Shown: piece by piece, positions 10,546-60,651 of the stretch
Layout: each line of letters opens with the position of its first letter
How positions within the stretch are numbered: position 1 is the stretch's first letter
Origin: an uncultured Ignavibacteriaceae bacterium
GTDB lineage: Bacteria; Bacteroidota; Ignavibacteria; UBA10030
Assembly (NCBI GenBank): GCA_964645575.1
Contig: CAZYAM010000002.1
Location: forward strand, 719-64,718
Direction: 5' to 3'
DNA length: 64,000 nt
The notes under the pieces: generated by a model
What the model was told of the DNA's origin: nothing
Seen by the model: only the letters and a program-made list of their open reading frames with translations
The model's database searches: none
Translations under genes and position numbers: made by a program

Positions 10546-10558
10546 TATCTGAACGCTT

Positions 10559-14198: not shown

Positions 14199-14962
14199 TG
14201 AAATATCTTCAGTGGATAATTATTATCGGAGTCAGTGCTCTGATTGTGAGCGCGGGATGGGCGCAGACTCCGGAAGATGTGTTCAATCGCGGAAATGAAC
14301 TTTACCGTGCAGGAAAGTATCAAGATGCGGTAAAAGAATATGAACGTATCATCAAACAAGGATACTCAAGCGCCGAGCTCTATTATAATTTGGGCAATGC
14401 ATATTATCGGAATGAGCAGCTTGCCCGGGCTATTCTCTCATATGAACGTGCTGCTCAATTGCAGCCGAATGATCCCGACATAACTCACAATCTAAAGCTC
14501 GTGTATCTCAAGACAATCGATCGTATTGAACCCGTGCCGGAAATGTTTTTTATTCAGTGGATGCGTGCCATCGGTTCTCTAATATCGCCTGAAAAAGTTA
14601 AATTCTTTTTTATTCTAAGCTGGATACTTCTTTTCGGATCACTTGCAGCGATGTACTTCATTTTACGGGCGGATTTCCTTCGTGTTGCCCGAACAATATT
14701 CTTCGTGTCCTTTATATCGGTTGTTATCTGGGCAGCTATGCTGGGTATTCAATCATTTCAGGAGACAACGCAGGATAAGGCGATTATCACCGCACAGATC
14801 GTGACTGCAAAGTCGTCCCCCGATGCTAATAGCGTAGATGCATTTGTAATTCATGAAGGAGTGAAGGTGAAACTCACTGATTCAGTTGCCGATTGGGTGA
14901 AGATTACGCTCGCCGACGGGAAAGTAGGCTGGATCCCCGCCGATCAGTGCGAACGTATTTAA
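14198..14962 (+). CDS. batE: BatE-like TPR plus SH3b protein
   Basis: It has a signal peptide and TPR repeats (YQDAVKEYERIIKQ, ELYYNLGNAYYRNEQLARA, SYERAAQLQPND). A TM is followed by a C-terminal SH3b-like module (VKITLADGKVGWIPADQCE). Confidence 0.6.
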   Translation: MKYLQWIIIIGVSALIVSAGWAQTPEDVFNRGNELYRAGKYQDAVKEYERIIKQGYSSAELYYNLGNAYYRNEQLARAILSYERAAQLQPNDPDITHNLKLVYLKTIDRIEPVPEMFFIQWMRAIGSLISPEKVKFFFILSWILLFGSLAAMYFILRADFLRVARTIFFVSFISVVIWAAMLGIQSFQETTQDKAIITAQIVTAKSSPDANSVDAFVIHEGVKVKLTDSVADWVKITLADGKVGWIPADQCERI

Positions 14963-21329: not shown

Positions 21330-24300
21330 ATGAGTGTTGATAGAAAAGGGCGCCAAACACAACGGAAACTTATTCTTATTTTTCTTTTTCTGATAATAAG
21401 TATTTCTATTGCAGCATATTCTTATTATCGCTTTCAACAAAGACGAATTATCGATGAGAAGCAGAATGAACTTGCCGCTATTGTAGATCTGAAAATCCAG
21501 CAAATTATTCAATGGAGAAATGAACGGCTTGGTGATGCTGGAATAATTTTTGAAAATATACTTATTGCTAATCAGGTAAGATCTTTTTTTCAGTCGCCTA
21601 ATGAATTGAATCGAAAAAATGAAGTTAATTCATGGCTGCAATCTTTCCTTAAGCATTATGGATACTCGGCCGCCTTGTTACTTGACACAATGGGAATCGT
21701 TCGTCTTTCAAATCCTGCTGCAGAAGAAGATATTCGACCGCAGGTCCGAGAACTGATCAAGGAAGCAATTATTCAAAAGGAAGTAATTCTTACTGATTTC
21801 CATCGATCGGATGATTCATCAAAAATACAAATCTCTCTCATTACTCCAATTCTAATAAACAAAAAGAATACCAACAGTGTGATTGGCGTATTATTATTAA
21901 ATATAGATCCAAACAAGTTATTGTTTCCTCTTATTCAATTGCAGCCCGCGATGAGCCGTTCCTCCGAGACACTACTAATAGAAAGCGACGGCGATGATGT
22001 TGTTTTCCTGAACGAACTTCGTCATAGGAAGGAAACACTATCCGCATTGAAGCTGCCGGTTTCAAAAGAAAAGCTGCCCGCAGCTATGGCGGTGCGCGGC
22101 ATCGAGGGTATTGTGGAAGGAATAGATTATCGTGGAATTCCCGTTCTTGCCGTAATGAAAAGAATTCCTGACTCCCCCTGGTTTATAGTTACAAAAGTGG
22201 ATCAAGAGGAGATCTACGCACCACTTCGGTTTCATACTTGGTTGATTGGCGGAATAACAATCATTTTTATTCTTGCATCAGGTATACTTCTTTACATCTG
22301 GTGGCAGAACAAACAGCATCAAGCAAAGATTGAACGTTTGGCGTTACTTAAACACTTCGAATACTTGGTCAAATATGCTCACGATGTTTATATTCTGGCA
22401 AATGAAAATCTTGAAATTATCGAAGTCAATGACCGTGCGCTAGAAACGTACGGATATACACGCGACGAGATGCTGGCATTGAATATCAAAAATCTGCATA
22501 TCATATCGCTTGAAGAACTCCCGGAAAAAATCAAGTCCGATATCGAGCATGAGGGAGTTACATTTGAATCGATTCACCGGCGAAAGAACGGCAGCACTTT
22601 TCCTGTCGAATTAAGCGTACGCCTTATTGAAATAGAAGGAAAGAAATTCTATCAGGGCATTATTAGGGATATTGCGGAAAGAAAAGAAGCAGAGGAAATT
22701 TTAAAAGAATCCGAAGAAAAATTCCGCACTTTTGCCGATCAGTCTCCTAATATGATTTTTATAAACTATAACGGGAAAGTTGTCTATGTAAATGAAAAAT
22801 GTGAAGAGCAAACGGGGTATACAAAAGAAGAGTTTTATTCTCCTGATTTCGATTTCCTTAAATTAACCGCTCCGGAGCATGTAGAGCTTCTTAAGGAAAA
22901 GTTTCGCAAACATACAGAAGGCGAAGAAGTTCCAGCGTATGAATATACAGTATTGAAAAAAAATGGGGAACGGAATGACGTAATTATTACGACAAAACTC
23001 ATACCGTACGAAAACGGGAAAGCAATTCTCGGTATGATTACAGATATTACTGAACGCAAGAAAACCGAAGAATCATTGCTCAAATTTCGATTAGGCATTG
23101 AACGTTCTCCCGATGCAATCTTTATCACCGATCCTTCAGGAATCATTGTCTTCGTAAATCCGGCTTTCGAACGGTTGTACGGTTATAGCTTTCAGGAATC
23201 CGTTGGAAATATGCCTCGTACTCTCAAATCGGGAACCATTCCTTCAGAAGATTACGAGCGCTTTTGGAGTAATCTCCTCTCAAAGAATGTGGTTTCCAGT
23301 GAAATTATCAACAAAACAAAGGATGGCCGACCTGTACATATTGAAGGTACAAATAATCCGATCCTTAATGATCAAGGTAAAATTATCGGCTTTTTAGGAA
23401 TACATCGTGATATTACAGACCGGAAACAAAAAGAAGAGGAGTTACAACAATCTTTTTCGCTCCTTCAAGCAACATTGGAATCCACTGCTGATGGGATTTT
23501 AGTTGTGGGTTTCAATGGAAACATCACTAATTACAATGTTCAATTTATCAAGATGTGGAATATCCCTGAAAACATCATGAAAGAAGGCAAGGATAGAGAA
23601 ACAATTAGTTTTATTCTATCTCAGTTAAAATCTCCGAAAGATTTTGTCAAAAAGGTGAACACGCTTTATTCTAATCCGGAAGAAGAGAGTTTTGATGTTC
23701 TGGAATTCAAAGACGGCAGAACATTTGAGCGCTATTCGCGTCCTCAACGAATAGAAGGACGGCCTGTCGGGCGGGTATGGAGTTTCCGCGATATCACTCA
23801 GCGGAAACTTGCGGAAGAACAGCTGCAAGAAAGTGAAGAGCGTTACCGCCGTCTTGTGGAATACTCACCCGACGCTATTGCTGTGCATGGTGAAGGAAAG
23901 TTCTTGTTTGCAAATCCCGCGGCTATAAAGCTTATTGGTGCTACCGATGAATCCCAGTTGATTGGAATGCCGGTTATGAAAGTAATACATCCGGATTATA
24001 TAGAGATAGTCCGACAGCGAATGCTAATAGGAATGAAAGAAAGAAAAGCATTGCCGCCTATGGAAGAAAAATTTATACGTCTGGATGATTCGGTTATAGA
24101 TGTAGAAGTGACTTCATTACCGATTATTTTCAAGGGAAAATCCGCGACTCAAGTTGTCGTACGAAACATTACGGAACAAAAGAAATTACAATATCAATTT
24201 TTCCAATCTCAAAAAATCCAGAGTATTGGCACGCTTGCCGGCGGAATTGCACATGATTTCAATAATATCCTGGCAATTATTCTTGGGTATTCTTCAACAT

Positions 24301-25343
24301 TGGAAAAGAATAGAAGCGATTCCAAGAAACATGCGGAAGGCATTTCAGCAATTAATCAAGCAATAGATCGAGGCGCCGCGCTTGTTCGGCAAATACTTAC
24401 ATTTGCACGGAAAACCGATGTCATATTCGAGCCGGTCAGCGTTCCGGATCTTATACATGAACTTCTTTCAATGTTAAAAGAGACTTTTTCAAAGACCATT
24501 ACATTCACACAAACCTATACACCGGAAATTCCAGATATTATTGCTGATCGCACGCAAATCCATCAAACACTCTTAAACCTTTGTGTTAATGCGCGTGATG
24601 CAATGCCGAATGGCGGATCAATCACAATTAAGGCGGAGCAGTGGAAAAGAGAAGACATACATAGACGTTTCCCTTCAGCTCCCGAAGAAACGTATGTCTG
24701 TATCAGCGTGGCAGATACCGGAATGGGGATGGATGAAACGACCTATACTCGTGTATTCGATCCCTTTTTTACAACAAAGGAAAAGGGAAAGGGAACCGGT
24801 CTCGGTCTTTCAGTTGTATATGGTGTGATGCAATCACATCATGGATTTGTGGATGTAGAAAGCAAAGTAGGAGTAGGAACTACATTTTATTTGTTCTTTC
24901 CTGTCTCAAATATGGAAGAGAAACCGATTGATGTGGTACCGCAGGAAAACGAAAAATTTACCGGCGGCACAGAGACAATACTTTTTGTCGAAGATGAATA
25001 TCTTTTACTGAAAGCGGTAAGACGTTTTTTGAAATCCTTTGGATACAGTGTCTATGTTGCTGCAGACGGTGAAGAAGCTATAGACGTTTTTACCAGGCAT
25101 CAGGACGAGATAGCTCTCGTGCTCTCCGATGTCGGTTTGCCTAAAATGAGCGGGATTGATGTGTTTAAAAAACTCAGAAGTATTAATCCTCAGGTGAAAG
25201 TCCTTCTTGCAAGCGGTTTTTTTGAACCCGATCTCAAACAATCTCTTAAAAAGCTGGGAGTGCGAGGATTCATTCAGAAGCCCTACTCGAATGATGAAGT
25301 CTTGCGAAAGCTTCGGGAGATTTTAGATGAAAAAAGCACGTAA
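21330..25343 (+). CDS. Multi-sensor hybrid histidine kinase (periplasmic sensor, TM, several PAS/PAC domains, HisKA, HATPase_c, C-terminal receiver)
   Basis: TM helices flank a ~270-aa periplasmic region. Repeated PAS-like blocks are present. The H-box is GIAHDFNNIL. N/G1/G2 boxes are present (NLCVNARDAM, DTGMGM, GTGLGLS). The C-terminal REC has EDE and LVLSDVGLPKMSG. Confidence 0.85.
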   Translation: MSVDRKGRQTQRKLILIFLFLIISISIAAYSYYRFQQRRIIDEKQNELAAIVDLKIQQIIQWRNERLGDAGIIFENILIANQVRSFFQSPNELNRKNEVNSWLQSFLKHYGYSAALLLDTMGIVRLSNPAAEEDIRPQVRELIKEAIIQKEVILTDFHRSDDSSKIQISLITPILINKKNTNSVIGVLLLNIDPNKLLFPLIQLQPAMSRSSETLLIESDGDDVVFLNELRHRKETLSALKLPVSKEKLPAAMAVRGIEGIVEGIDYRGIPVLAVMKRIPDSPWFIVTKVDQEEIYAPLRFHTWLIGGITIIFILASGILLYIWWQNKQHQAKIERLALLKHFEYLVKYAHDVYILANENLEIIEVNDRALETYGYTRDEMLALNIKNLHIISLEELPEKIKSDIEHEGVTFESIHRRKNGSTFPVELSVRLIEIEGKKFYQGIIRDIAERKEAEEILKESEEKFRTFADQSPNMIFINYNGKVVYVNEKCEEQTGYTKEEFYSPDFDFLKLTAPEHVELLKEKFRKHTEGEEVPAYEYTVLKKNGERNDVIITTKLIPYENGKAILGMITDITERKKTEESLLKFRLGIERSPDAIFITDPSGIIVFVNPAFERLYGYSFQESVGNMPRTLKSGTIPSEDYERFWSNLLSKNVVSSEIINKTKDGRPVHIEGTNNPILNDQGKIIGFLGIHRDITDRKQKEEELQQSFSLLQATLESTADGILVVGFNGNITNYNVQFIKMWNIPENIMKEGKDRETISFILSQLKSPKDFVKKVNTLYSNPEEESFDVLEFKDGRTFERYSRPQRIEGRPVGRVWSFRDITQRKLAEEQLQESEERYRRLVEYSPDAIAVHGEGKFLFANPAAIKLIGATDESQLIGMPVMKVIHPDYIEIVRQRMLIGMKERKALPPMEEKFIRLDDSVIDVEVTSLPIIFKGKSATQVVVRNITEQKKLQYQFFQSQKIQSIGTLAGGIAHDFNNILAIILGYSSTLEKNRSDSKKHAEGISAINQAIDRGAALVRQILTFARKTDVIFEPVSVPDLIHELLSMLKETFSKTITFTQTYTPEIPDIIADRTQIHQTLLNLCVNARDAMPNGGSITIKAEQWKREDIHRRFPSAPEETYVCISVADTGMGMDETTYTRVFDPFFTTKEKGKGTGLGLSVVYGVMQSHHGFVDVESKVGVGTTFYLFFPVSNMEEKPIDVVPQENEKFTGGTETILFVEDEYLLLKAVRRFLKSFGYSVYVAADGEEAIDVFTRHQDEIALVLSDVGLPKMSGIDVFKKLRSINPQVKVLLASGFFEPDLKQSLKKLGVRGFIQKPYSNDEVLRKLREILDEKST

Positions 25344-51063: not shown

Positions 51064-51384
51064 ATGGGAACATCGAAAAAAGAAGCTTTCAGCGATAATC
51101 AAAATCGGCTTGCCGATCTGGCAAAAGCGCTGGCTCATCCTGCCCGGATTGCAATACTGGAATTTTTATCTAAAAGAAATTCGTGTATGTGCGGTGATAT
51201 TGTAGATGAGATTCCGCTTTCACAGGCAACCGTATCCCAGCATCTTGCGGAGTTAAAACGTATCGGCCTTATTAAAGGCGAGATAGAAGGCCCGAAAGTG
51301 TGCTATTGCATCAATAAAAAAATCTGGCAGAAAGCAAAACAAATTCTTAATCGGTTTCTGACAGATGCAAAATCATATTGCTAA
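51064..51384 (+). CDS. arsR: ArsR/SmtB-family metalloregulator (arsenite-type)
   Basis: The CxC metalloid site sits in the HTH region ([14 protein letters not shown]...[14 protein letters not shown]). The protein is 106 aa. Confidence 0.75.
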
Positions 51385-51443
51385 ATATTTTTTTTGCACT
51401 AATATATCATAATATTACAATACTCATCTTTAAGAGATATTAT

Positions 51444-52253
51444 ATGAACTCAGAACAAAAAATCAAAAAAATGGTAAAGGAGAAATATGGGGCCATTGCA
51501 CAGCAAACCCAAAAATATAATCAGACATCTTGCTGCGGGAGTAGGCGCGGATGTTCGAACGTGGAATTTTCTATTATGGCAGAAGATTACACAAAACTAT
51601 CAGGATATGTCCCCGATGCCGATCTCGCATTAGGATGCGGCTTACCGACAAAATATGCACGTATCAAACGGGGTAATACGGTTGTGGATCTAGGTTCCGG
51701 TGCTGGCAATGACTGTTTTATTGCACGATCAATTACAGGTGATACCGGGCGCGTCATCGGTATCGATATGACGGAGGCGATGACTGCAAAAGCAAAAACA
51801 AATGCTTCAAAATATGGATTTGAGAATGTAGAATTCCGCTTGGGCGATATTGACAACATGCCGATTGAAAATAACACTGCCGATGTGGTAGTCAGCAACT
51901 GTGTTATGAATCTTGTTCCGAATAAGAAAAAAGCCTTTTCAGAAACGTTCCGTATTATGAAAAGCGGCGGACATTTCAGTGTCTCAGATATTGTTTTGAA
52001 AGGTGAACTGATCGATGAGCTTCGAAAGGAAGCGGCACTCTATGCCGGATGTATTTCCGGTGCAGTTCAGAAGGAAGAATATTTACAAATTATCAGGGAT
52101 ATCGGTTTCATTAAAATAACTGTTAAAGAAGAACGCAAAATTGATATTCCCAATTATATTCTGGCCAAATTTCTTACCATAGATCAATTGAGCGGATATA
52201 ACAAAAGCTATGTCGGGATATTTAGTATAACAGTAAATGCAGAGAAACCATGA
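51444..52253 (+). CDS. arsM: Arsenite S-adenosylmethionine methyltransferase ArsM-like
   Basis: The likely start is MNSEQKIK. The SAM motif is VVDLGSGAGNDCF. Three conserved Cys contexts are present (LGCGLP, VVSNCVMNLVP, YAGCISGA). Confidence 0.75.
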   Translation: MNSEQKIKKMVKEKYGAIAQQTQKYNQTSCCGSRRGCSNVEFSIMAEDYTKLSGYVPDADLALGCGLPTKYARIKRGNTVVDLGSGAGNDCFIARSITGDTGRVIGIDMTEAMTAKAKTNASKYGFENVEFRLGDIDNMPIENNTADVVVSNCVMNLVPNKKKAFSETFRIMKSGGHFSVSDIVLKGELIDELRKEAALYAGCISGAVQKEEYLQIIRDIGFIKITVKEERKIDIPNYILAKFLTIDQLSGYNKSYVGIFSITVNAEKP

Positions 52254-52781
52254 GCGTTTTGTATCGTTAAGCAATAGAAAACATACTATCACTATTCACT
52301 CGCTGCTGGAAAGCTAGAGTCTTCCAATAGAAACGGTTGGTACAACAATGACTGATTTCTATCTCGCTGTTGGAAATTATGTCCTTGTTGACATTTCCGG
52401 ATTTGCCATCAACCCGCAAAAAGCTGAACGCGATATTAAAAATTGCGTGTACCGAGCAAAATTCATAAGATAGAAGCACAAAAAGACAAAGTTATTCTGG
52501 TTAAATCGGTTTGGTTAGCTGTTCCGGTACCTGTGTTTTGTCACTGTTGATTTTATAGCCATTTTATAGCATAATACAAACTAATACTAAATCTAATTAT
52601 GAGAAATGCCTTGATTGAGAGTCATTATCTCAAACGTTTATAAATCAATGGAGCAAAGAAAGATAATCAATCCACTACCTTGAGTGAATTTATTGCGGCT
52701 CAACAACTATAGATGATATAACTAATTAAATTTTTATATTCTGAATCAGAGTGAAAAATCGTAACACGAAGGAGAAATTTT

Positions 52782-53036
52782 ATGTCTACTGTTGATTTAG
52801 CTACTATTCAACCGGCCAAGACGGCCGATGCTCGAGCGATGGCTTGTCCAGGTCCATTGCTGGAAGCTAAAAAAAGCATCGGATTGGTTAAAGTTGACGA
52901 AGTACTGGAAATTTGGTCGGGCGACCAAAGCACAAAAAAAGACATGCCGGCCTGGTGCGCAAAAGTGGGACACGAGTTTCTTGGTGTCGTTGTTGCCGAT
53001 GGATATGACCGGATTTTTATTCGACGCAAAAAGTAG
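52782..53036 (+). CDS. tusA: TusA-family sulfur-carrier protein
   Basis: It is 84 aa with the CPxP active-site motif (ARAMACPGPLLEAKK) and the conserved ...DMPAWCAKVGHEFL. Confidence 0.75.
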   Translation: MSTVDLATIQPAKTADARAMACPGPLLEAKKSIGLVKVDEVLEIWSGDQSTKKDMPAWCAKVGHEFLGVVVADGYDRIFIRRKK

Positions 53037-53100
53037 AGACGTATTTCTTGTTTCTTTATATACCGGTTGTTACGGCAAAGCGTGAGGAAAAAGAATTATT

Positions 53101-53562
53101 ATGATAGCGAAAGAAAAAATTCACGAACATAAAATACTGATTCTTGCAACCTTGTCAGGCGGTTATATGGGAGCAGATTCGGCCGGACAGTCTCATTTAG
53201 AGTACTCATCCAACGCTTACATTTTGCCAGTAAGAACAGCCGCGATCTTTCCACCGCAATTCTATATCAATGCGTTCAAGAAAGGCATTGATGGCATTAT
53301 CATAATGTACAGTGGCGCTGACTGTCCATACAAGGGTGCACCGGAGCGGACCGCAGAAATCATCAACAAGACTTACGGCTTGATGAAGGAACAAGGTCTT
53401 GATACGCGACGGCTTCGCCTTGCAGCAATCTGCACTGTATGTGTGCGCCCATTTCTCGGTGAGATCGAAAAGATGAACACGCTGCTCGCTGAAATTGGAT
53501 CAGTGTCGTACAATCAATCCCCGTTACAATCTGCAAATGCACAGATCATAAGGCAGGAATAG
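53101..53562 (+). CDS. MvhD/FlpD-like iron-sulfur subunit encoded as a stand-alone gene
   Basis: It aligns with the methyl-viologen-reducing hydrogenase delta-subunit pattern (ILILAT.SGGYMGADSAG..LEYSSN.YILPVR.AAIFPPQFYINAFKKGIDGIIIM.SGADCPYKGAPERTAE...LGLDTRRLRLA). Confidence 0.7.
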   Translation: MIAKEKIHEHKILILATLSGGYMGADSAGQSHLEYSSNAYILPVRTAAIFPPQFYINAFKKGIDGIIIMYSGADCPYKGAPERTAEIINKTYGLMKEQGLDTRRLRLAAICTVCVRPFLGEIEKMNTLLAEIGSVSYNQSPLQSANAQIIRQE

Positions 53563-53578
53563 GGAGCATCGCATAGCT

Positions 53579-54883
53579 ATGAAGAACCTTCATGTAGATA
53601 CACTGGTTATCGGTGGTGGGATTGCTGGAATGCAGTCCGCTCTTGATCTAGCGGATCAGGGCTACCGTGTAGCTCTTGTAGAGAAGAATCCGAGCATCGG
53701 TGGAAAAATGATTGGACTCAGCAAGGTCTTTCCCACATTGGACTGCTGCAGTTGTATCACCACACCGAAAATGTCGGCCGTTGCTCATCACGAAAACATT
53801 GAGTTGTTAACCTACAGCGAAGTAGAAGTAGTATCACGCAAGAAAAATGGCTTCACTGTCCAAGTCCTGAAAAAACCCTTGTATGTTAAGGAAAAAGATT
53901 GTACCGGCTGCCGCTCGTGCGAACAGGTCTGCCCGCTTGATGTACCGGACAATGAGAATGAATTTAGCCGTACCGCTCACCGAGTAATATATGTTCCTTT
54001 TACGACGGCTGTGCCTCAAAAAGCCTTGATTGATATTGATTACTGCCTTTTTTGCGGTAAATGCGTGCAAACCTGCCCCTCGAACGCGATTGATTTTAAC
54101 CAACAGTCTCAACAACTGGAAATTGAAACCCGGACAATTATCCTGGCGACCGGTTACAAGGTAACGCCGTATAATGCCAAGAAGGAGTATGGTGCGGGAA
54201 AACTTTTAAACGTGATCGATGGATTGATGATGGAACGCCTGCTTGCGCCGACCGGCCCATACGGACGAGTATTACGCCCTTCGGATGGCAAGCAACCTGC
54301 ATCCATCGCCTACGTCCAGTGTGCCGGTTCACGCGATCAAACGTTGGGTGTACCGTACTGCTCACGCGTCTGCTGCATGTACGCGATTAAACAAGCAATG
54401 CTGCTCTCCGGGACACTGCCCATGGCAGATATTTCCATTTACTACATGGATATTCGCGCTTTTGGCAAGGGTTACGAGCAGTTCTACCAGAGTGCAAAAG
54501 CGATGGGGATCGAGTTTATTAAAGGCAAGGTAGCGCGTATTACTGAAGATGAAAATCATAATCCTTCTGTACGGGTCGAATTAATTGATGACAGCTCCAG
54601 GGTTGTTGAACGAAAACATGATATAGTGGTTCTCTCGGTAGGTATGCTGCCGGGTTGGAATCCTGAATCGTTAATCGGAGTATCGACAGCCGAGGATGGT
54701 TTCGTTCAAATTCCTAATTACAATATTGCACCAACGATAACGGCGCAGTATGGAATCTTTGCTACAGGTACTGCTATTGGTCCGATGGACATTGTAGACA
54801 GCATTATGACAGCTAGTGCCGCAGCCGCAGAAGTTGCGGCTTTTATTCGATCGCAGAATCGTAATGAGATGGCTCTAATCTAA
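53579..54883 (+). CDS. QmoA-like short HdrA-family FAD flavoprotein with an inserted 2x[4Fe-4S] ferredoxin domain
   Basis: The FAD motif is VIGGGIAGMQSALDLA. Two ferredoxin motifs are present (CTGCRSCEQVCP, CLFCGKCVQTCP). HdrA signatures CAGSRD and YCSRVCCMYA are present. It lacks the HdrA N-terminal Cys domain. Confidence 0.8.
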   Translation: MKNLHVDTLVIGGGIAGMQSALDLADQGYRVALVEKNPSIGGKMIGLSKVFPTLDCCSCITTPKMSAVAHHENIELLTYSEVEVVSRKKNGFTVQVLKKPLYVKEKDCTGCRSCEQVCPLDVPDNENEFSRTAHRVIYVPFTTAVPQKALIDIDYCLFCGKCVQTCPSNAIDFNQQSQQLEIETRTIILATGYKVTPYNAKKEYGAGKLLNVIDGLMMERLLAPTGPYGRVLRPSDGKQPASIAYVQCAGSRDQTLGVPYCSRVCCMYAIKQAMLLSGTLPMADISIYYMDIRAFGKGYEQFYQSAKAMGIEFIKGKVARITEDENHNPSVRVELIDDSSRVVERKHDIVVLSVGMLPGWNPESLIGVSTAEDGFVQIPNYNIAPTITAQYGIFATGTAIGPMDIVDSIMTASAAAAEVAAFIRSQNRNEMALI

Positions 54884-54902
54884 GATGAGAGGAATTTAGA
54901 CG

Positions 54903-56984
54903 ATGGCTGAGGAATCGAAAAAACTCGAACCGACCGGAGCAAGTCAAGCCGGTTCTATTTCGGAAGAACCTCGTATTGGAGTTTACATCTGCGATTGTGG
55001 AGGCAACATCAGCGATACTGTACGCTGTGATCAAGTTGCAAACGCGCTCAGGAAACTTCCCAACGTGGTTGTCTCGCGGCGCTATCAATTTATGTGTTCT
55101 GATCCGGGTCAAAAGCTGATCATTGATGACATTAAAGAAAACGGTATCAACCGGGTTGTAGTGGGAGCGTGTTCCATTTTTCTGCATGAACAGACATTCC
55201 GTAAAACCGTACAGCGTGCAGGATTGAATCCGTATCTGTACTGCCACATCGGCTTGCGAGAGCAAAATAGCTGGGTGCATCATACGTACCCAATCGGTGC
55301 TACAACTAAAGCCATTCGTATGATGTCCGCCGGTATCACCAAAGCTCGCCTGATGAAGCCGCTGGAAGATATACATTTGGAAGCACACAAACATGTACTC
55401 GTTATTGGTGGCGGTGTGGCAGGCTTGCGTTCCGCGTTGTCACTTGCACGTAGCGGCTTACAAGTTACGTTGATTGAAAAAAGTCATTTCCTGGGTGGTC
55501 ATCTCGCACAGTGGGAACAGGTCTTTCCGACCGAGGAAGACGCACGAACATTACTGAACGGGCTGATCGAGGATGCAAGAGTACAGCCCAATCTCCGTAT
55601 CCTTACCGGGGCTGAGATGATTTCCGCTAAGGGCTATGTCGGTAACTTTACGATTTGCGTTCGCCAGCAGCCGCGCGGTGTCGCTGGTAATTTCGAGTTA
55701 ATAGATAAAGCCATCGCTGTCTGCCCGGTCGAAGTGCCGGACGAATTCAATTTTGGGATGATCAAGCGTAAGGCGATCTATCGATCTTATGCGGGTTGTT
55801 ACCCTGCAAGCCCGGTCATTGACAGAGAACATTGCACCAAGTGTGGGGAATGTCTGAAGGTTGATAAGAAAAACAGCATACATCTCGATGAACCTGCGAT
55901 TGAGATTGAATTAAAGGTAGGAGCGGTCGTTATAGCGACCGGTTTCCGTTTGTACGAACCCTTTCAGGGTGAAATGGGTTACGGTAAATTGTCAGGAGTG
56001 ATTACTCTTCCTCAATTGGAACGTCTATTATCGAGTGGAAGATCGACAGAGAATGCCCTGAAATGGAACGGACACACTGTCCGCAGTATGGCAATGATCC
56101 ATTGTGTGGGCAGCCGCCAAATTGAGGGTGTGCACGCACCCCAGCCGGACGGGAAGGTGAACGACTATTGTTCGAGAGTGTGCTGCACAGCTACATTAAG
56201 TACGGCTAACAGAATTCGTGAACGATTCCCGGACATAAACATTTATGATGTCTATCAAGACATTCGGACATATGGTCGTGGACATGAAGATTATTATACT
56301 AAAGCATCGAAGAATCTTGTAACCTTCCTGCGTTATATCGGTGAAGAAATTCCAGAAGTGGTGCAAGCTGAGGAAGGCGCAGAGTATTCACTGATTGTGA
56401 GAGTGAAAGATCATTTAACATGGGGAGAAGAGATCGAATTACCGGTAGATCTGATCGTATTGTCTGTAGGAATGATGCTGAGTCCGGTGAAAGATTTGGT
56501 TGAAATGCTTAAAGTAGCACCGGGAAATGACCGTTTCTTACTGGAAGTACATCCCAAGTTGCGGCCCGTTGAGACAGCTGTGGCAGGCGTAGTGTTGGCC
56601 GGTACGGCACAAAGTCCGATGAATATTCAGGAAAGTTGTGCTGCGGCTGAAGCTGCAGCTACAAAAGTTGTTGTCCTGCTCAACCGAGGAAAAGTCGATC
56701 TTGAACCTTACATTGCGAGAGTTGACCCCAAACGCTGTAAGGGTACGGGAGAATGTGTACGCGTATGCCCGCAAGAAGACGCAGTCCATTTGGAGACTTT
56801 TATAGATAACGGGAAAACGCTCCAGCGAGCCGTGATCACCGCAGCTAACTGCAATGGATGCGGCGTGTGTGTTAGTGCCTGTCCAAACCACGCGATCGAT
56901 GTGCAGGGTTGGAGTCTTAATGATTTTAATGCAATGGTGGAAGCGATAACATCGGAGATACCTATTCCGGAAAGTACTTCATGA
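54903..56984 (+). CDS. Full-length HdrA/QmoB-like flavoprotein (N-terminal Cys-cluster domain, FAD domain, C-terminal 2x[4Fe-4S] ferredoxin) without a fused MvhD domain
   Basis: The N-terminus is IGVYICDCGGNISD...YQFMCSDPGQ...NRVVVGACS...LNPYLYCHIGLREQNSWVH. The FAD motif is VIGGGVAGLRSALSLA. HdrA signatures CVGSRQ and YCSRVCC are present. The C-terminal ferredoxin motifs are CKGTGECVRVCP and CNGCGVCVSACP. Confidence 0.8.
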   Translation: MAEESKKLEPTGASQAGSISEEPRIGVYICDCGGNISDTVRCDQVANALRKLPNVVVSRRYQFMCSDPGQKLIIDDIKENGINRVVVGACSIFLHEQTFRKTVQRAGLNPYLYCHIGLREQNSWVHHTYPIGATTKAIRMMSAGITKARLMKPLEDIHLEAHKHVLVIGGGVAGLRSALSLARSGLQVTLIEKSHFLGGHLAQWEQVFPTEEDARTLLNGLIEDARVQPNLRILTGAEMISAKGYVGNFTICVRQQPRGVAGNFELIDKAIAVCPVEVPDEFNFGMIKRKAIYRSYAGCYPASPVIDREHCTKCGECLKVDKKNSIHLDEPAIEIELKVGAVVIATGFRLYEPFQGEMGYGKLSGVITLPQLERLLSSGRSTENALKWNGHTVRSMAMIHCVGSRQIEGVHAPQPDGKVNDYCSRVCCTATLSTANRIRERFPDINIYDVYQDIRTYGRGHEDYYTKASKNLVTFLRYIGEEIPEVVQAEEGAEYSLIVRVKDHLTWGEEIELPVDLIVLSVGMMLSPVKDLVEMLKVAPGNDRFLLEVHPKLRPVETAVAGVVLAGTAQSPMNIQESCAAAEAAATKVVVLLNRGKVDLEPYIARVDPKRCKGTGECVRVCPQEDAVHLETFIDNGKTLQRAVITAANCNGCGVCVSACPNHAIDVQGWSLNDFNAMVEAITSEIPIPESTS

Positions 56985-57295
56985 AGTTAAAAAATAAAGA
57001 AGAGACTAGAAAGCAAACGCATATTTTGGGCGAACTACGTCAGCAGCACGGCGCTCAGGTGAAACATGCTAAAGAGTTACTAAAGGAACAACAGACCGTT
57101 CGCAAGACATTACAGAGTGTTTTGCAGCATGAGCCGCAGTCGGTCCCTCAATTAGCTGCAACAACGAAAATAGCTGCACATGTAATTTTGTGGCATATTG
57201 CAGCGATGAAAAAATATGGTGTTGTTGAAGAAGCGGGGATGGACGAGAACAGAGAGTACTACCTGTATCGTCTGGCGAAGGAGGCGAAATCATGA
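56981..57295 (+). CDS. Small translationally coupled ORF (104 aa), possibly winged-helix-like
   Basis: Its start and stop codons overlap the upstream and downstream genes (ATGA overlaps). The helical protein has a possible wHTH-like segment (IAAHVILWHIAAMKKYGVVEE...REYYLYRL). It has no Cys. Confidence 0.4.
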   Translation: MKLKNKEETRKQTHILGELRQQHGAQVKHAKELLKEQQTVRKTLQSVLQHEPQSVPQLAATTKIAAHVILWHIAAMKKYGVVEEAGMDENREYYLYRLAKEAKS

Positions 57296-58434
57296 GTCAG
57301 CGCGCTGATCCTCGCTTTGTTTCTGAACTGAAAAAGTATGGAATGGTGAACATTGAGTCCTGCTTCAATTGCGGCAATTGCACTGCAGTGTGCCCGCTTT
57401 CGACTGAAGAAGATAATTTTCCGCGCCGAATGATTCGCTATTCACAAATCGGCATGGAAGAAAAATTACTCAGCAGCAAAGAACTCTGGATGTGTTACTA
57501 CTGCGGCGAATGCACTATCACCTGTCCGCGTCAAGCTGATCCCGGCGAATTTATGGCAGCGGCTCGACGTTACGCGATTGCTAAATATGATCCTCTTGGA
57601 TTAGCCAAACTACTTTACACATCTTCAACTTTCACTGTTCTGTTCCTCGTTGTACTGGCTGCTGTGTTGGGAACATTCTTTTATTCCTTTCATGGCCCGA
57701 TGCCGAGTGATACATTTCGCTTGTTCGAGTTTATCCCTGCGGAAGTGATTCACGATTCCGGCGTGATTGCGGGAATCATCATCGTACTCGTGGCTCTTGC
57801 GGGAATGGTAAATATGATTATCCATATTAGAAAAGAAAAAAAGTTACCCAAGGGTGCAAGGCTCAATTGGTTTGGAGCGATGTGGGATACGATTGTCGTT
57901 GAAGGATTGGGGCAAAGCCGCTATCGGAAGGACTGTGAAGCATATTCAAAAGAGCAACATTGGTATAAAAAAAGGTGGTTTATTCACGCTGCAATAATGT
58001 GGGGTTTTCTGGGATTGTTTTTGGCTACTGTATTAGATTACTTTTTGTATTTGCTTGAAATCAAACCCATTGGAACATGGGTGCCGATATGGTATCCGGT
58101 CAGATTGTTGGGTACACTGGCAGGAGTTGTGATGATGTATGGTGTTTCGGCTGCCATTATCCGCAGATTGAAAAAAGCTGACGAAACATCGAAGAATTCA
58201 ACACCGTCGGATTGGATCTTCTTAATCCTTCTCTGGCTGGGAGGGTTGACCGGTTTTGCACTGGAGATTGCCCTATATTTACCACAGCCGCACGCTTGGA
58301 GTTACTGGATGTTGTTGATACATCTTATTGTGGTAGTAGAATTGCTTGTCTTGCTGCCTTTTTCCAAATTTGCACATGTGGTCTATCGGACGGTAGCTCT
58401 GTACGTGTACGCTCTTAAGCCTCTATCTAAATGA
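57292..58434 (+). CDS. QmoC-like fusion of an HdrC-type 2x[4Fe-4S] domain with a NarI/HdrE-like multi-helix membrane domain
   Basis: The N-terminus has CFNCGNCTAVCP and CYYCGECTITCP. Six predicted TM helices follow, carrying conserved His residues (HDSGVIAGIII, HIRKEK, HAAIMWGF, HLIVVVELL). Confidence 0.7.
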   Translation: MSQRADPRFVSELKKYGMVNIESCFNCGNCTAVCPLSTEEDNFPRRMIRYSQIGMEEKLLSSKELWMCYYCGECTITCPRQADPGEFMAAARRYAIAKYDPLGLAKLLYTSSTFTVLFLVVLAAVLGTFFYSFHGPMPSDTFRLFEFIPAEVIHDSGVIAGIIIVLVALAGMVNMIIHIRKEKKLPKGARLNWFGAMWDTIVVEGLGQSRYRKDCEAYSKEQHWYKKRWFIHAAIMWGFLGLFLATVLDYFLYLLEIKPIGTWVPIWYPVRLLGTLAGVVMMYGVSAAIIRRLKKADETSKNSTPSDWIFLILLWLGGLTGFALEIALYLPQPHAWSYWMLLIHLIVVVELLVLLPFSKFAHVVYRTVALYVYALKPLSK

Positions 58435-58527
58435 AACCGCCGGCTTTGGAAATCAAGAAAAAGAAATTCGTCTTATAAGTTTTTTAACATAAGAAAAATA
58501 AAATCATATAATTCAAGGAATTATTTT

Positions 58528-58890
58528 ATGGCTGAAAAAATGATCGTTGTATGCAACGGTGTAGCGCCAAGTAATATCATGCCCGCATTGATTTTTGCCT
58601 CATCCGGTATTGCACTCGATTATGAGGTGCACATGTTCTTTTGTCCGGCTGGTGCACAGGCACTCGTTAAAGGCGAATTAGAGAAAATCGGTACGACGAA
58701 GGGCATGCCAAATCCCGTAGAGCTTTTCAACACGATCCTGGACCAGAAAGGTAAGGTTGTGTTCTGTGAACTAGCAATTGTAAACAAGGGCATAGACCCG
58801 AAGGATTTGCGCGATAGCCGTATCGTGATCGAGAAAGTACCGCCGTTTTTGATGGCAGCAGAGGGTGCAAAGATGACATTTGTTTTCTAA
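58528..58890 (+). CDS. DsrE/DsrF-family (TusD-like) protein
   Basis: It is 120 aa with the patterns MIVVCNGVAP...VHMFFCPAGAQALVKG...KVVFCELAIVNKGI, which match the DsrE/DsrF fold and its Cys positions. Confidence 0.65.
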   Translation: MAEKMIVVCNGVAPSNIMPALIFASSGIALDYEVHMFFCPAGAQALVKGELEKIGTTKGMPNPVELFNTILDQKGKVVFCELAIVNKGIDPKDLRDSRIVIEKVPPFLMAAEGAKMTFVF

Positions 58891-58962: not shown

Positions 58963-58998
58963 AAAATAAAAGCCCGATTCATTAAAAGAACCGGGCTT
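58963..58998. terminator. Hairpin between convergent genes, likely a bidirectional terminator
   Basis: The hairpin aagcccg attcattaaaagaa ccgggctt has a 7-bp GC-rich stem. A T-rich tract lies on the minus-strand side. Confidence 0.35.
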
Positions 58999-59025: not shown

Positions 59026-60651
59026 TTATTTCATAAATGTAATCTTTATTGTATTTGTAAAGTCCTTTCCTTTCTCCGATTGCGCGGTGAGACGTGCAAA
59101 ATATATTCCGCTTGCTAGTCTTCCGGTATCGAATGTAACTGAATAGTTACCGGATTTCTTCGTTTCATTTACCAGTTCTGCTATTTCACGTCCGAGTATA
59201 TTGTATATCTTCAAACTTACATGACTATTCCCTGAAATCTGATATTTTAAAGTTGTCGATGGATTGAATGGATTCGGAAAATTCTGAAATAAGGATATTT
59301 TAAAAGGGATGCTGATGTCTCTGGTGTTTTTAACTTTAGTAGGTTGAATTATACTCTCCAGTTGTGGAATAAGCCAATCGTTGATACCGCCGTCGATTTG
59401 TGCATCAGAATTGCTCCAGATGTAATCCCGAAAACCATTTAAAATCCGCCAGGCATTCATATCATACCTGATTGCCTCTCCTGCTGTAACAGCGACTCTA
59501 TGATCCATCCCGTCCAGTATAACTTGTTTATCCATATCAATAGATATTGAATCCCACATTGCTATTGCTTCATTTCTCAGATTCTTAATAGTCGGAAGTG
59601 ATGGGCTTCCCGTTGCATAGAATTCAATTGTGTGTGCGATTGTCATAATAACTGCCATTGCTTTTGAGGGACTTTTCGTAGTCTTTAAAATTCCAAATCC
59701 ACTTTCTCCCCATCCTACATTATGAGTTCCGTTGTACGATGGAAGAGCGGCGATATCCCAGTAATTGGTACTGTCGCTCAATGTTCCGCAATACCATGAA
59801 CCGACCGTTACCATAGCTGTTCTGCCTGAACCTAAGGGATTACCCTGCATGGTGTCGGAAAACATTTCCCTATAAGGTATAAAGTAATTCTGCCAGATAC
59901 CCGAATGGCTCCACAAATATCCATCGCGCATGTATTGCGGTATACTTACACTGCCGTCTTGGTTTATAAGCTGCGGTGGGCCGAACATGCAAAGGAAACT
60001 TATTCCATTATTCCACGCCCAATGAAAACCGTATTGCAAAATATGATTTTTATCGAATTCAGGATGAAGAGTATTATGTCCATTAACATCTAGGGTCAAT
60101 AATGCTCCTATTTGTGCAAGTTTGTTTACATCCCAGGATTCTCCGTCCGCGTACAGTGAATCATAACTGTGCGGAGGATAGGGAATTCCTGCATGATCGA
60201 ACATATCTTTATTATAATAAAATAGATCCGGACTCTGGGTCAGAGGAAGATATATCAGGCCGTTTTTATTTCTGAATTTATGGAAAGAAGATGTATCCAT
60301 TTGAGTCAGAACCGATTGTGGAATATATGGAGTAAGATCAAGAAAATGATCCCAGAGTACACTATATCGTAAAGCTGTTATGTCTGGGGGGCTACCCGCT
60401 GCAATTCTTGATAATAATGAATCTGCTGCATCAAACGAACAGGTGGCAGTAGTGATATCCATAACTAGTTCAATACTATCCTGAGAAAGATTATACGCCT
60501 GGACGTATCGTATAAAATCACTGTCAAGCGTACCCTCATCGTTTGATGCTTGAATAAACCATTTAATTTGTGTTCTTCCTGACTGTCCAAAGAATGTATT
60601 TGGGCACAAGACAAAAGCAAAGAATATGCAAATAGCAAATCTACTACGCAT
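59026..60651 (-). CDS. Secreted family-1 solute-binding-protein-like protein with a C-terminal T9SS sorting domain
   Basis: It has a signal peptide. An SBP_bac_1-like region is present (LIYLPLTQSPDLFYYNKDMFDHAGIPYPP, WAWNNGISF). The C-terminal ~80 aa carry the T9SS CTD pattern (LFQNFPNPFNPSTTLKYQ...GIYFARL...ITFMK). Confidence 0.6.
   Translation of the reverse strand: MRSRFAICIFFAFVLCPNTFFGQSGRTQIKWFIQASNDEGTLDSDFIRYVQAYNLSQDSIELVMDITTATCSFDAADSLLSRIAAGSPPDITALRYSVLWDHFLDLTPYIPQSVLTQMDTSSFHKFRNKNGLIYLPLTQSPDLFYYNKDMFDHAGIPYPPHSYDSLYADGESWDVNKLAQIGALLTLDVNGHNTLHPEFDKNHILQYGFHWAWNNGISFLCMFGPPQLINQDGSVSIPQYMRDGYLWSHSGIWQNYFIPYREMFSDTMQGNPLGSGRTAMVTVGSWYCGTLSDSTNYWDIAALPSYNGTHNVGWGESGFGILKTTKSPSKAMAVIMTIAHTIEFYATGSPSLPTIKNLRNEAIAMWDSISIDMDKQVILDGMDHRVAVTAGEAIRYDMNAWRILNGFRDYIWSNSDAQIDGGINDWLIPQLESIIQPTKVKNTRDISIPFKISLFQNFPNPFNPSTTLKYQISGNSHVSLKIYNILGREIAELVNETKKSGNYSVTFDTGRLASGIYFARLTAQSEKGKDFTNTIKITFMK

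Follow-up and report, generated by a model that had tools for sequence, protein, structure and literature searches.

The window analysed here, a stretch of DNA of 64 kb, contains a seven-gene cassette that is a tightly conserved operon in hundreds of uncultured bacterial species and is paired with TusA in 61/63 loci. The best explanation, to which we give a probability of about one half as a whole, is that the seven genes form one self-contained operon for a modular, quinone-coupled complex of the HdrA type, with TusA-borne sulfur as its putative redox substrate. The evidence comes from gene content, from domains and cofactor ligands conserved across at least 50 homologues, from synteny and modular variants, and from the fusion of a winged-helix protein to its neighbour. 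The genes lie co-directionally on the plus strand between 52782 and 58890 (Table 1) and encode, in 5′ to 3′ order, TusA, an MvhD-fold protein, a short and a long HdrA-like flavoprotein, a 104-aa winged-helix protein, a QmoC-like protein and a DsrE-like protein. The ORF listing bears out the coordinates and close packing given in the first-pass annotation, with intergenic gaps of 64, 16, 19, -4, -4 and 93 nt, and the 4-nt overlaps suggest translational coupling. Likewise, domain scans of the seven proteins support the Qmo-like composition proposed there. The spacer upstream of tusA holds a tandem ATTTTATAGC (x2) at 52550-52570; it contained no credible ORF and no Rfam match, and its promoter-like matches were not above chance. 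At the other end, the hairpin beyond dsrE is a likely terminator and would mark the end of the operon.

Table 1. Features of the cassette and its immediate flanks (positions in the window).
Feature	Position	Strand	Description
Spacer arsM-tusA	52254..52781	+	528 nt; presumed promoter region
tusA	52782..53036	+	84-aa sulfur carrier; active-site C22 in CPGP motif; PF01206 4e-17
MvhD-fold protein	53101..53562	+	153 aa; PF02662 (FlpD/MvhD) 8e-17; without the MvhD [2Fe-2S] cysteines; C111-x-x-C114 and H32
Short HdrA-like (QmoA position)	53579..54883	+	434 aa; FAD fold, inserted 2x[4Fe-4S] ferredoxin domain, C248/C261/C265/C266 cluster motif
Long HdrA-like (QmoB position)	54903..56984	+	693 aa; N-terminal 4-Cys domain, FAD fold, inserted and C-terminal ferredoxin domains
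Winged-helix protein	56981..57295	+	104 aa; cysteine-free; long N-terminal helix and winged helix; 4-nt overlap with both neighbour genes
QmoC-like membrane subunit	57292..58434	+	380 aa; HdrC-type 2x[4Fe-4S] domain and six predicted transmembrane segments
dsrE-like	58528..58890	+	120-aa sulfur carrier; C80 at DsrE active-site position, plus C9
GC-rich hairpin	58970..58998	.	between convergent dsrE and minus-strand downstream gene; terminator-like, 11 pairs, minus-strand score

The two HdrA-like flavoproteins are 31% identical to each other. The short one matches positions 140-561 of the HdrA2 model NF040770 (476 bits) and residues 143-559 of HdrA 8rvv_A (411 bits), and its GxGxxG motif and the listed cysteines each reach a conservation of at least 95% among relatives. 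The long one spans model positions 1-643 (602 bits) and residues 2-635 of HdrA 5odc_A (494 bits), without a fused MvhD domain. Both of the ferredoxin domains initially assigned to it are present, but the inserted one keeps the ligands for a single cluster only, and this domain is missing from long-HdrA homologues of about 580-610 aa. The QmoC-like protein, which has more than 2000 homologues, matches the qmoC model NF038018 over its full length with 227.7 bits, below the cut-off of 300. Its N-terminus aligns to HdrC (PDB 8rvv_C, 9e-14) and a NarI-like match was also obtained. Eight cysteines, H154, H232, H344 and H362 are ~100% conserved, and C215 98%. Hydropathy and histidine placement put the four invariant histidines in pairs at opposite membrane faces, an arrangement that fits two b hemes spanning the membrane; judged from its conserved residues, the protein probably binds heme and quinone. 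The winged-helix protein shows a weak HTH_20 match in the domain scan, and its AF2 model (pLDDT 89) gives only weak fold matches, to MarR/ArsR. Its motif LWHIAAMKKYG is invariant, and a profile search returned 350 representative clusters, nearly all of about 100 aa. In three MAGs (L079, L086 and L028) the long HdrA continues in frame at its C-terminus into this protein, a fusion which suggests that the winged-helix protein belongs to the complex as a subunit.

In the MvhD-fold protein we observe a new combination, the loss of the cluster cysteines together with the gain of a conserved CxxC. The fold assigned at first pass is supported by an AF2 model (pLDDT 77) with TM 0.7-0.8 to the MvhD chains 5odc_D, 8rvu_F and 7bkb_F, but the canonical cluster cysteines are absent, those of CCxxC and VMC being replaced in the alignment with MvhD. 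C111 and C114 are 98% and H32 95% conserved, compared with only 32% for C75, and the CxxC sits at a strand-to-helix junction of the model (strand 105-109, helix 115-132). On these predicted ligands the protein cannot act as a [2Fe-2S] electron wire. Its gene is, as had been described, separate and upstream of the qmoA-like gene, and since this holds in 61/63 loci it is not an assembly artefact. Of the two sulfur carriers, TusA reaches 39.5 against an NCBIfam TusA equivalog cut-off of 78 and has Ta1170 (1pav) as its closest solved structure. It is among the best-conserved members of the cassette, with a mean column identity of 64% and with C22 invariant in 62 cassette homologues (100%), and tusA is present and first in order in 61/63 loci. 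The DsrE-like protein scores just over the cut-offs of both PF13686 (28.6 bits) and PF02635 (24.5 bits), and among 40 homologues C80 is 100% and C9 97% conserved, so that the carrier cysteine is kept in both families. Its gene is found 3′ of the QmoC-like gene in 36/73 loci and upstream in 4. TusA is thus the core partner and DsrE an accessory member, a correction to the earlier view that the two carriers bracket the module.

The order TusA-MvhD-like-HdrA-HdrA-(wH)-QmoC-like is conserved in 61/63 related loci with enough flank. The host MAGs belong to Chloroflexota, Ignavibacteriota, Bacteroidota, Acidobacteriota, Actinomycetota, Planctomycetota, NC10 and others; from one locus to the next, the surroundings of the cassette are unrelated. 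A fixed order across so many phyla, set among unrelated flanks, argues for one functional unit. In two Planctomycetota loci (L078 and L073) the HdrA-HdrA-wH-QmoC core is accompanied by a canonical MvhD, an MvhG/MvhA [NiFe] hydrogenase and maturation genes; here MvhDGA replaces TusA and the degenerate MvhD, and the winged-helix protein is kept in L078. This swap suggests that the TusA/MvhD position is an exchangeable substrate module. Moreover, in four loci (L018, L028, L079 and L086) the short HdrA contains an inserted GltD/NfnB-like NAD(P)H module, which supports a multi-substrate enzyme of the bifurcation type. The same variants could be read differently. The core would then be a ferredoxin, NAD(P)H or H2:menaquinone oxidoreductase; TusA, the MvhD-like protein and DsrE would take part in assembly, in repair or in redox regulation, for instance by way of a CxxC thiol switch or of reversible persulfidation. 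Indeed, L078 and L073 combine the core with a hydrogenase and lack TusA, the NAD(P)H insertion shows the core to be open to further donors, and there is no recognised S-S-cleaving catalytic subunit. We nevertheless regard this as unlikely, given that TusA and the CxxC protein are lost exactly where the Mvh substrate module is gained, that they are present in 61/63 loci, NAD(P)H variants included, and that both rank among the best-conserved members of the cassette.

In the TusA-linked complex that we favour, the core would be a heterodimer-like pair of HdrA proteins, each with FAD and several [4Fe-4S] clusters, with the small winged-helix subunit added to it. The QmoC-like subunit, with its pair of FeS clusters and its two b hemes across the membrane, would link the flavins to the menaquinone pool. 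The sulfur relay would be the input or output side: DsrE (C80) and TusA (C22) would carry sulfane sulfur, as a persulfide or possibly a thiosulfonate, and swap it with the CxxC dithiol of the MvhD-fold adaptor, which would bind HdrA at the site that MvhD occupies in methanogen Hdr complexes. Overall, TusA-bound sulfane sulfur and sulfide would be interconverted in a two-electron reaction coupled to menaquinone/menaquinol. In keeping with a sulfur substrate, occasional neighbours of the cassette are sulfur-related, namely a TsuA/YeeE-type transporter and extra copies of DsrE or DsrE2. A ferredoxin-type domain of the long HdrA is probably a third, low-potential branch, leading to flavin-based bifurcation or confurcation. 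What we infer is therefore close to the quinone-linked, possibly bifurcating oxidoreductase on TusA/DsrE-bound sulfur first suggested, except that DsrE is not core, and its lack in about half of the loci counts against the explanation. Since the cassette offers neither an HdrB- nor a DsrK-type catalytic site for S-S chemistry, catalysis would rest on a putative role of the CxxC. On thermodynamics, and on the analogy to the hydrogenase variant, we slightly favour oxidation, in which sulfide or persulfide would be the donor and menaquinone and ferredoxin the acceptors. What then becomes of the sulfane sulfur is left unexplained; reduction is thermodynamically marginal should the quinol site lie on the outer face.

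The same chemistry might instead serve housekeeping, as an inducible system that relieves persulfide or polysulfide stress by turning excess reactive sulfane sulfur into H2S, or that buffers sulfide, with the quinone pool as source or sink, making the cassette the anaerobe counterpart of SQR/CstA/CstB-type systems. TusA and DsrE are also paired in the cst-type sulfide-stress operon of Staphylococcus, the cassette is widespread in heterotrophic lineages, and in many lineages dedicated regulators flank it (ArsR-type directly upstream in ~14 loci, generic and below the BigR cut-off; divergent LysR in 25; XRE-cupin in several). However, no regulator of its own adjoins the window copy, whose upstream ArsR is paired with arsM, and a complex of five subunits that holds two flavins, two hemes and some nine or more FeS clusters would be elaborate for detoxification. 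With the hydrogenase-linked and NAD(P)H-linked variants pointing to an energy-metabolism module, we find a housekeeping role doubtful.

The cassette is neither canonical QmoABC nor sHdr. It resembles type I QmoABC, which works with AprAB in sulfate reducers and green sulfur bacteria, in its two HdrA-like flavoproteins, its MvhD-type module, its presumed coupling to quinone and its membrane subunit, in which an HdrC-like 2x[4Fe-4S] domain is joined to a di-heme cytochrome b. Unlike QmoABC, it has a separate, upstream MvhD without cluster cysteines, a 2x[4Fe-4S] insert in the short HdrA, an additional winged-helix subunit and a QmoC-like protein under the 300-bit cut-off, and it is linked to TusA, with or without DsrE, rather than to aprBA-sat. 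For Qmo, confurcation with a third partner has already been proposed (PMC3333476). Neukirchen et al. 2023 (PMC10504309), following Chernyh et al. 2020, described a "type II" Qmo that stands nearer to typical HdrA than to bacterial QmoAB, has no known role and is found whether or not the organism has Apr/Dsr; the HdrAs of the cassette, for their part, align end to end with methanogen HdrA. Going by the published description, the cassette may belong to this group, and the initial remark that the combination had not been seen described was too strong, although that description names no TusA, MvhD, winged-helix or DsrE partner (PMC10504309).

An ordinary Qmo of the type II lineage could also serve an unlinked APS reductase or Dsr elsewhere, TusA and DsrE being merely co-located sulfur-trafficking helpers. 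Some host groups, such as Acidobacteriota and Desulfomonilaceae, include Dsr/Apr organisms. Moreover, the subunit set parallels QmoABC (PMC3333476), and type II Qmo is found in the true sulfate reducers Ammonifex degensii and Vulcanisaeta moutnovskia (PMC10504309). Against this, and in agreement with the first-pass annotation, a Pfam scan of all window ORFs of at least 150 aa found no Apr, Sat, Dsr or CCG-domain HdrB, and a DsrC-type C-terminus was absent from all window ORFs of at least 60 aa. In a near-identical strain, neither apr, sat, hdrB or dsrC nor a canonical qmoABC beside aprBA-sat was seen within ~7 kb past the window end. No apr, sat or dsr occurred in six other Pfam-annotated neighbourhoods (+/-10 kb), and none recurred among the neighbours of 80 loci. 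Most hosts (Anaerolineae, Ignavibacteriota, Bacteroidia, Actinomycetota, Planctomycetota and NC10) are not known sulfate reducers. Together with the linkage to TusA and the CxxC adaptor and the replacement by hydrogenase, which point to TusA and not AprAB, this makes an unlinked Apr/Dsr partner decidedly unlikely.

With the MvhAGD-HdrABC complex of methanogens (PDB 5ODC, 8RVU and 7BKB) the cassette shares the HdrA fold and cluster motifs, an MvhD-fold docking module and an HdrC-type domain, and the Planctomycetota variant L078 even has MvhDGA. It differs in lacking HdrB with CCG or non-cubane clusters, and therefore a heterodisulfide site, in having as acceptor a membrane di-heme domain that is presumably quinone-reducing and, in the TusA version, in its degenerate MvhD. 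The sHdr system (shdrC1B1AHC2B2 with TusA, DsrE3 and LbpA) likewise couples an Hdr-type complex to TusA/DsrE-family proteins and has a small conserved hypothetical gene inside the hdr cluster. However, sHdr is soluble and needs HdrB1/B2 and lipoate-binding proteins, whereas the cassette has no HdrB, LbpA or lipoate genes; sHdrA is a short single-cluster flavoprotein, and 6TJR aligns only partially to the HdrAs of the cassette. HdrA2, a fusion of HdrA and MvhD, is the best NCBIfam match for three of the cassette proteins, and the NAD(P)H-insert variant resembles HdrL. Unlike these, the cassette has its MvhD part split off, upstream of a second HdrA paralogue, and a membrane subunit as partner instead of HdrB2C2.

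Lastly, arsR-arsM lies directly upstream of the cassette in the window, and ArsM-class methyltransferases are found upstream in two further loci (L003 and L092). These genes, with a weak match of TusA to the selenium protein YedF, raise the idea that the carriers handle selenium or thio-arsenic species and that the complex reduces a Se or As-S compound. We hold this to be very improbable: adjacency to arsRM is not a conserved feature of the other loci, the window ArsR, with its arsenite-type CxC motif and its overlap with arsM, forms a separate unit, and the YedF match (18 vs 110 bits) is far under the cut-off.

An ORF check of the window returned all seven genes of the cassette on the + strand, each with exactly the boundaries called in the first-pass annotation, and with intergenic spacings, in cassette order, of 64, 16, 19, -4, -4 and 93 nt. 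The encoded proteins were identified by profile scans against Pfam and NCBIfam, and the matches are collected in the table together with the other features discussed here. TusA scores under the cut-off of the E. coli-type NCBIfam equivalog (39.5 vs 78) and therefore belongs to a distinct TusA subfamily. A tandem direct repeat found ~210 nt upstream of tusA, inside a 528-nt spacer, may be an operator or promoter element; an Rfam search of the same spacer for riboswitches or leader RNAs gave no match. A sigma-70-like site in the 93-nt gap hints at an internal promoter ahead of dsrE, although this host may rely on promoters of another type. Counts of sigma-70-like and terminator-like elements in scans of the window were no higher than the shuffled expectation.

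Features of the window and of related loci (L-numbers, contigs carrying QmoC-like homologues), with profile matches where available
Feature	Location	Coordinates	Match or content
Cassette	window	52782-58890	seven genes, TusA to DsrE
TusA	window		PF01206, 4e-17, 62 bits vs cut-off 28.6; C22-P-G-P motif
MvhD-like	window		FlpD/MvhD family PF02662, 8e-17
Short HdrA, 434-aa core	window		NF040770 (HdrA2) model positions 140-561, 476 bits
Long HdrA, 693 aa	window		NF040770 (HdrA2) model positions 1-643, 602 bits
104-aa ORF (wH, winged helix)	window		weak HTH_20 match only
QmoC-like	window		NF038018 over full length, 227.7 bits, cut-off 300; N-terminus aligns with HdrC of solved Hdr complexes
DsrE-like	window		PF13686 and PF02635, both barely above cut-off
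Tandem direct repeat	window	52550-52570	ATTTTATAGC-C-ATTTTATAGC
Sigma-70-like site	window	58484-58512	TTAACA-17-TATAAT, 11/12 match to consensus
Aerotolerance-type operon	window	6131-14962	MoxR-DUF58-BatA-BatB-BatD-TPR, complete
Hybrid sensor kinase	window	21330-25343	1337 aa; dCache, several PAS, HisKA/HATPase, receiver domain
arsR-arsM	window	51064-52253	arsR with CMCGD (arsenite-type motif), overlapping arsM (arsenite methyltransferase, NF008823, 335 bits); arsM start ambiguous, TTG at 51378 or in-frame ATG near 51444
Gene with T9SS sorting tail	window	59026-60651
Interrupted cassette	L016	3164-9025	island with 1381-aa ORF
Hydrogenase variant	L078	2188-10744	Planctomycetales MAG
Same junction as L078	L073	2-3240	Planctomycetota MAG
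NAD(P)H-variant short HdrA	L018	4194-6980
NAD(P)H-variant short HdrA	L028	4174-6906
NAD(P)H-variant short HdrA	L079	4124-7000
NAD(P)H-variant short HdrA	L086	4066-6816
wH-long HdrA fusion	L079	7004-8995	Bacteroidia; long N-terminal helix of wH missing
wH-long HdrA fusion	L086	7005-9008	Bacteroidia; long N-terminal helix of wH missing
wH-long HdrA fusion	L028	6903-8897	Chloroflexia; long N-terminal helix of wH missing
Genes directly upstream of tusA	L003	4190-5744	SAM methyltransferase, extra DsrE, small hypothetical gene
Genes directly upstream of tusA	L092	7880-9665	SAM methyltransferase, extra DsrE, small hypothetical gene
Tandem tusA genes	L094	9405-9919	two copies ahead of cassette
Partial cassette	L087	2-2729	long HdrA, 93-aa ORF, QmoC-like (42% identical)

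The cassette is a genuine unit, found again in hundreds of genomes. The QmoC-like protein has >2000 homologous protein clusters at E <= 1e-10, originating from soils, peat and sediments, with identities of 62% or more throughout the best 120. When one genome was scanned per GTDB species, relatives turned up in at least 540 genomes. The best 80 of these are all MAGs, with Chloroflexota/Anaerolineae in the majority and the others assigned to NC10, Ignavibacteriota, Bacteroidota, Acidobacteriota, Actinomycetota, Planctomycetota, Desulfomonilaceae, Latescibacteria, Gemmatimonadales and a Heimdallarchaeota bin. Carriers of the cassette include fen_1038, fen_1039, fen_1026 and palsa_272, MAGs from Stordalen Mire peat. 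The seven window proteins were then mapped onto six-frame ORFs of related loci. TusA, MvhD-like, short HdrA, long HdrA and QmoC-like genes follow one another in the same order in 61 of the 63 loci with at least 4.7 kb of upstream sequence, and the 104-aa protein was detected in 50 of the 63. Because this order is kept, and the MvhD-like ORF is a separate upstream gene throughout these 61 loci, we reject an assembly artefact or a split qmoB as its origin. The order is conserved with no apr, sat, dsr or hdrB gene recurring nearby. Bracketing by TusA and DsrE, as described in the first-pass annotation, holds for TusA, which comes first in all 61, but not for DsrE, which is accessory: it lies downstream of the QmoC-like gene in 36/73 loci and upstream of TusA in 4, and a DsrE2-like gene takes its place in some of the remainder. 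The two exceptions to the common order are a hydrogenase variant (L078, described below) and L016, where an unrelated island, perhaps a mobile element or a defence element, cuts off the cassette upstream of the QmoC-like gene. Two high-GC loci (L052 and L060) seemed to contain giant fusions; we put these down to faulty ORF calling and left them out of the analysis.

An alternative is that these genes are an ordinary qmoABC whose APS reductase partner lies nearby. Pfam scans of the ORFs found no Apr, Sat, Dsr or CCG-domain (HdrB) protein in the 64-kb window, as the first-pass annotation had proposed; CCG strings are confined to ArsM and one off-frame ORF, and no window ORF has a DsrC-type C-terminus. 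The remaining genes are housekeeping in nature (a MoxR/Bat aerotolerance operon, BipA, MreD-PBP2-RodA and a dcw cluster through ftsQAZ), accompanied by arsR-arsM, a T9SS-tailed solute-binding protein and an AraC-type protein. Taken together, the T9SS tail and the Bat operon suggest a host from the FCB group (Ignavibacteriota/Bacteroidota-like). An aprBA-sat cluster just outside the window was also sought and not seen: the 52 kb upstream are already inside the window, and a contig from a near-identical strain (L088), which runs ~7 kb past the window end, adds only AraC, Mfd and a UvrC-like gene. Likewise, apr and sat were not found in six annotated neighbourhoods and do not recur among the neighbours of the 80 loci surveyed.

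The complex would work like canonical QmoABC, with which it shares two HdrA-related FAD proteins in the positions of QmoA and QmoB. However, the cassette departs from it in three of the four defining features tested. The QmoC-like protein stays below the QmoC equivalog score, despite having the architecture with eight cysteines and four histidines. Canonical QmoB has a C-terminal MvhD-like domain (PMC3333476), whereas the MvhD-fold gene of the cassette is separate, and the linkage to APS reductase (aprBA, often with sat) is absent from the window, L088, the six neighbourhoods and the 80-locus survey. With sHdr systems the sole common feature is a set of TusA and DsrE-family carriers with conserved active-site cysteines; HdrB pairs with CCG domains, LbpA and lipoate-assembly genes are missing from the cassette, and none was found in the window or the annotated neighbourhoods. 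Methanogen Hdr has HdrA, the MvhD fold and the HdrC-type domain in common with the cassette, which lacks the heterodisulfide site. Type II Qmo, a group closer to HdrA that occurs with or without Dsr/Apr and whose role is unclear, includes the Qmo proteins of V. moutnovskia and A. degensii (Neukirchen et al. 2023, PMC10504309). The window proteins fit the published description, and their high-scoring full-length alignments to methanogen HdrA and the sub-cut-off qmoC score would be indirectly consistent with this group; neither TusA nor MvhD is mentioned in that paper or its supplements. We found no description of a TusA-MvhD-HdrA-HdrA-wH-QmoC-DsrE cassette in the open-access literature, although subscription journals may hold one. 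The type II Qmo remark (PMC10504309) amounts to a partial earlier notice. The earlier interpretation is otherwise largely upheld, with the further corrections that DsrE is accessory and the MvhD-like protein degenerate.

The sulfur-carrier cysteines expected of TusA and DsrE are confirmed by alignment, with TusA C22 and DsrE C80 100% conserved among relatives and DsrE C9 97%. Both HdrA paralogues match HdrA across the FAD core, keeping the GxGxxG FAD motif and the four-Cys cluster motif (C248/261/265/266 in the short, C401/423/427/428 in the long HdrA); full-length alignment to methanogen HdrA gave 494 bits for the long and 411 bits for the short protein. In the short HdrA the 2x[4Fe-4S] insert is complete, and there is a C56-x-x-C59 pair that the long HdrA lacks. 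The long HdrA in turn retains an N-terminal four-Cys domain and a C-terminal ferredoxin domain, after which it ends with no fused MvhD, the MvhD-fold gene being two positions upstream. Its inserted ferredoxin domain, missing from long HdrA homologues of ~580-610 aa, has in the window protein the ligands for exactly one cluster (C274 plus C311/314/317). The QmoC-like protein has eight cluster cysteines, four invariant histidines and a 98% conserved C215. Hydropathy gives six membrane segments with H154/H344 at one face and H232/H362 at the other, a predicted placement as expected for two b hemes carrying electrons across the membrane. PDB sequence searches found no solved Qmo complex.

The stand-alone gene first read as MvhD/FlpD-like proved to be so in fold and not in cofactor. 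Its AF2 model (pLDDT 77) matches 5odc_D, 8rvu_F and 7bkb_F in Foldseek with TM 0.69-0.81 (E 1e-9 to 7e-8), but the [2Fe-2S] cysteines of MvhD (CCxxC and VMC) are replaced by L-A-T-L-S and V-R-T, and the sole leftover cluster cysteine, C75, is conserved in just 32% of the family. A canonical MvhD, that of L078, keeps all cluster cysteines and scores 175 bits vs 62 for the MvhD-like protein. What the family keeps is H32 (95%) and C111-x-x-C114 (98%). In the predicted structure this pair sits between beta-strand 105-109 and the N-terminus of helix 115-132, which would be the geometry of redox-active dithiols in thioredoxin-like proteins. Given the loss of the cluster cysteines and the gain of CxxC, we therefore read this MvhD scaffold, formerly an electron wire, as a thiol/disulfide adaptor.

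The 104-aa protein is cysteine-free and modelled with high confidence (AF2 pLDDT 89) as a winged helix preceded by a helix of 46 residues. Fold searches returned only weak, generic MarR/ArsR matches (E > 1e-3). A profile search recovered 350 representative clusters, nearly all of ~100 aa, and the motif LWHIAAMKKYG is invariant. In three MAGs the long HdrA carries the winged helix as an in-frame C-terminal extension (hhalign probability 98%, E 2.5e-13), and in the hydrogenase variant the 104-aa protein is kept as a free-standing gene between the short HdrA and the QmoC-like gene. Fusion and retention argue for a structural subunit; the alternative considered was a free-standing DNA-binding regulator of ArsR/MarR type.

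Two kinds of modular variant were found. In L078 the long HdrA is followed by a canonical MvhD, an MvhG-like small subunit, a [NiFe] large subunit, the short HdrA, wH, the QmoC-like gene and a HycI protease; the locus lacks TusA and has HypF, HypD and HypE on its flanks. The same junction occurs in L073, and the assembly may be an H2:menaquinone(/ferredoxin) complex. In the second kind, the short HdrA reaches ~910-960 aa because its ferredoxin domain has taken up a GltD/NfnB-like NAD(P)H module, an HdrL-like arrangement; these four loci still carry TusA and the CxxC MvhD-like gene. Both variants lead us to conclude that the HdrA-HdrA-wH-QmoC core accepts different substrate modules. TusA and the CxxC adaptor fill the position of hydrogenase and MvhD.

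These data suggest a possible mechanism. In the core, FeS chains and two trans-membrane hemes would connect two flavins with the menaquinone pool, and the long HdrA would offer a low-potential exit or entry in its ferredoxin-type C-terminal domain. Sulfane sulfur would arrive or leave on DsrE and TusA, and the CxxC adaptor would turn this exchange into a dithiol/disulfide cycle, which the neighbouring HdrA centre would reduce or oxidise much as ferredoxin:thioredoxin reductase or HdrB does. A thiosulfonate on TusA or DsrE, a higher-potential acceptor, would also be possible. Textbook potentials are ~-270 mV for S0/HS-, -74 mV for menaquinone and ~-450 to -500 mV for ferredoxin. By these values the sulfide/persulfide couple falls halfway between the other two, as flavin-based bifurcation requires. 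The quinone site of QmoC is assumed to be at the outer face (PMC3333476), which would make the oxidative direction, from sulfide to menaquinone plus ferredoxin, favourable and the reductive, confurcating direction marginal. On these potentials with an outer-face quinone site, and by analogy with the hydrogenase variant, we lean slightly towards the oxidative direction. We put at roughly one in four the chance that the cassette stands for a widespread but so far unrecognised family of flavin-bifurcating complexes, membrane-bound and quinone-coupled, in which an HdrA-HdrA-wH-QmoC core takes interchangeable inputs from TusA-bound sulfur, Mvh hydrogenase or NAD(P)H. In such a family the TusA-bound sulfur input would run through the thiol-based MvhD derivative, and the sulfur version would divide a sulfide/protein-persulfide couple of ~-270 mV between menaquinone and ferredoxin.

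Sulfate reduction and methanogenesis have Qmo/Hdr-type complexes at their core; the coupling of Qmo to the quinone pool and its possible bifurcation are long-standing questions. In the cassette, a natural variant, a protein-bound sulfur substrate would stand in for the partner enzyme, and its sister variants on the same core, with hydrogenase or NAD(P)H module, give a comparative handle on the Qmo mechanism. As a compact unit of 6-7 genes it is expressible, and the question of Qmo-type bifurcation thus becomes testable. TusA in place of AprAB or hydrogenase, and a thiol-type MvhD, would surprise a specialist. If sulfane sulfur is turned over, a large set of organisms active in the sulfur cycle escapes present gene surveys. 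Were the bifurcating reading true, a cryptic sulfur cycle would run in Chloroflexota, Ignavibacteriota, Bacteroidota, Acidobacteriota, Actinomycetota and others and would include a new route to low-potential reductant, all of it invisible to the current markers dsr, apr, sox and sqr.

Lastly, flanking genes are entirely different from locus to locus. The neighbours that recur are regulators, of ArsR type immediately upstream in ~14 loci, of LysR type and divergent in 25, and of XRE-cupin type in several; a few loci have sulfur-related neighbours, namely a TsuA/YeeE-type transporter or extra DsrE copies. The ArsR of the window was considered as a cassette regulator and rejected: it overlaps arsM and carries an arsenite-type CxC, unlike the ArsR adjoining tusA in other loci, and the adjacency of arsR-arsM to the cassette is not kept elsewhere. 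The contig of the Heimdallarchaeota-labelled bin (L087) begins inside hdrA, and its cassette genes either reached Archaea by lateral transfer or reflect an error of binning. The shared layout upstream of tusA in L003 and L092, the latter with a cassette protein labelled Candidatus Kryptonia, may be an extended version of the cassette. In L094, XRE-cupin regulators stand on both flanks of a cassette preceded by its tandem tusA genes.
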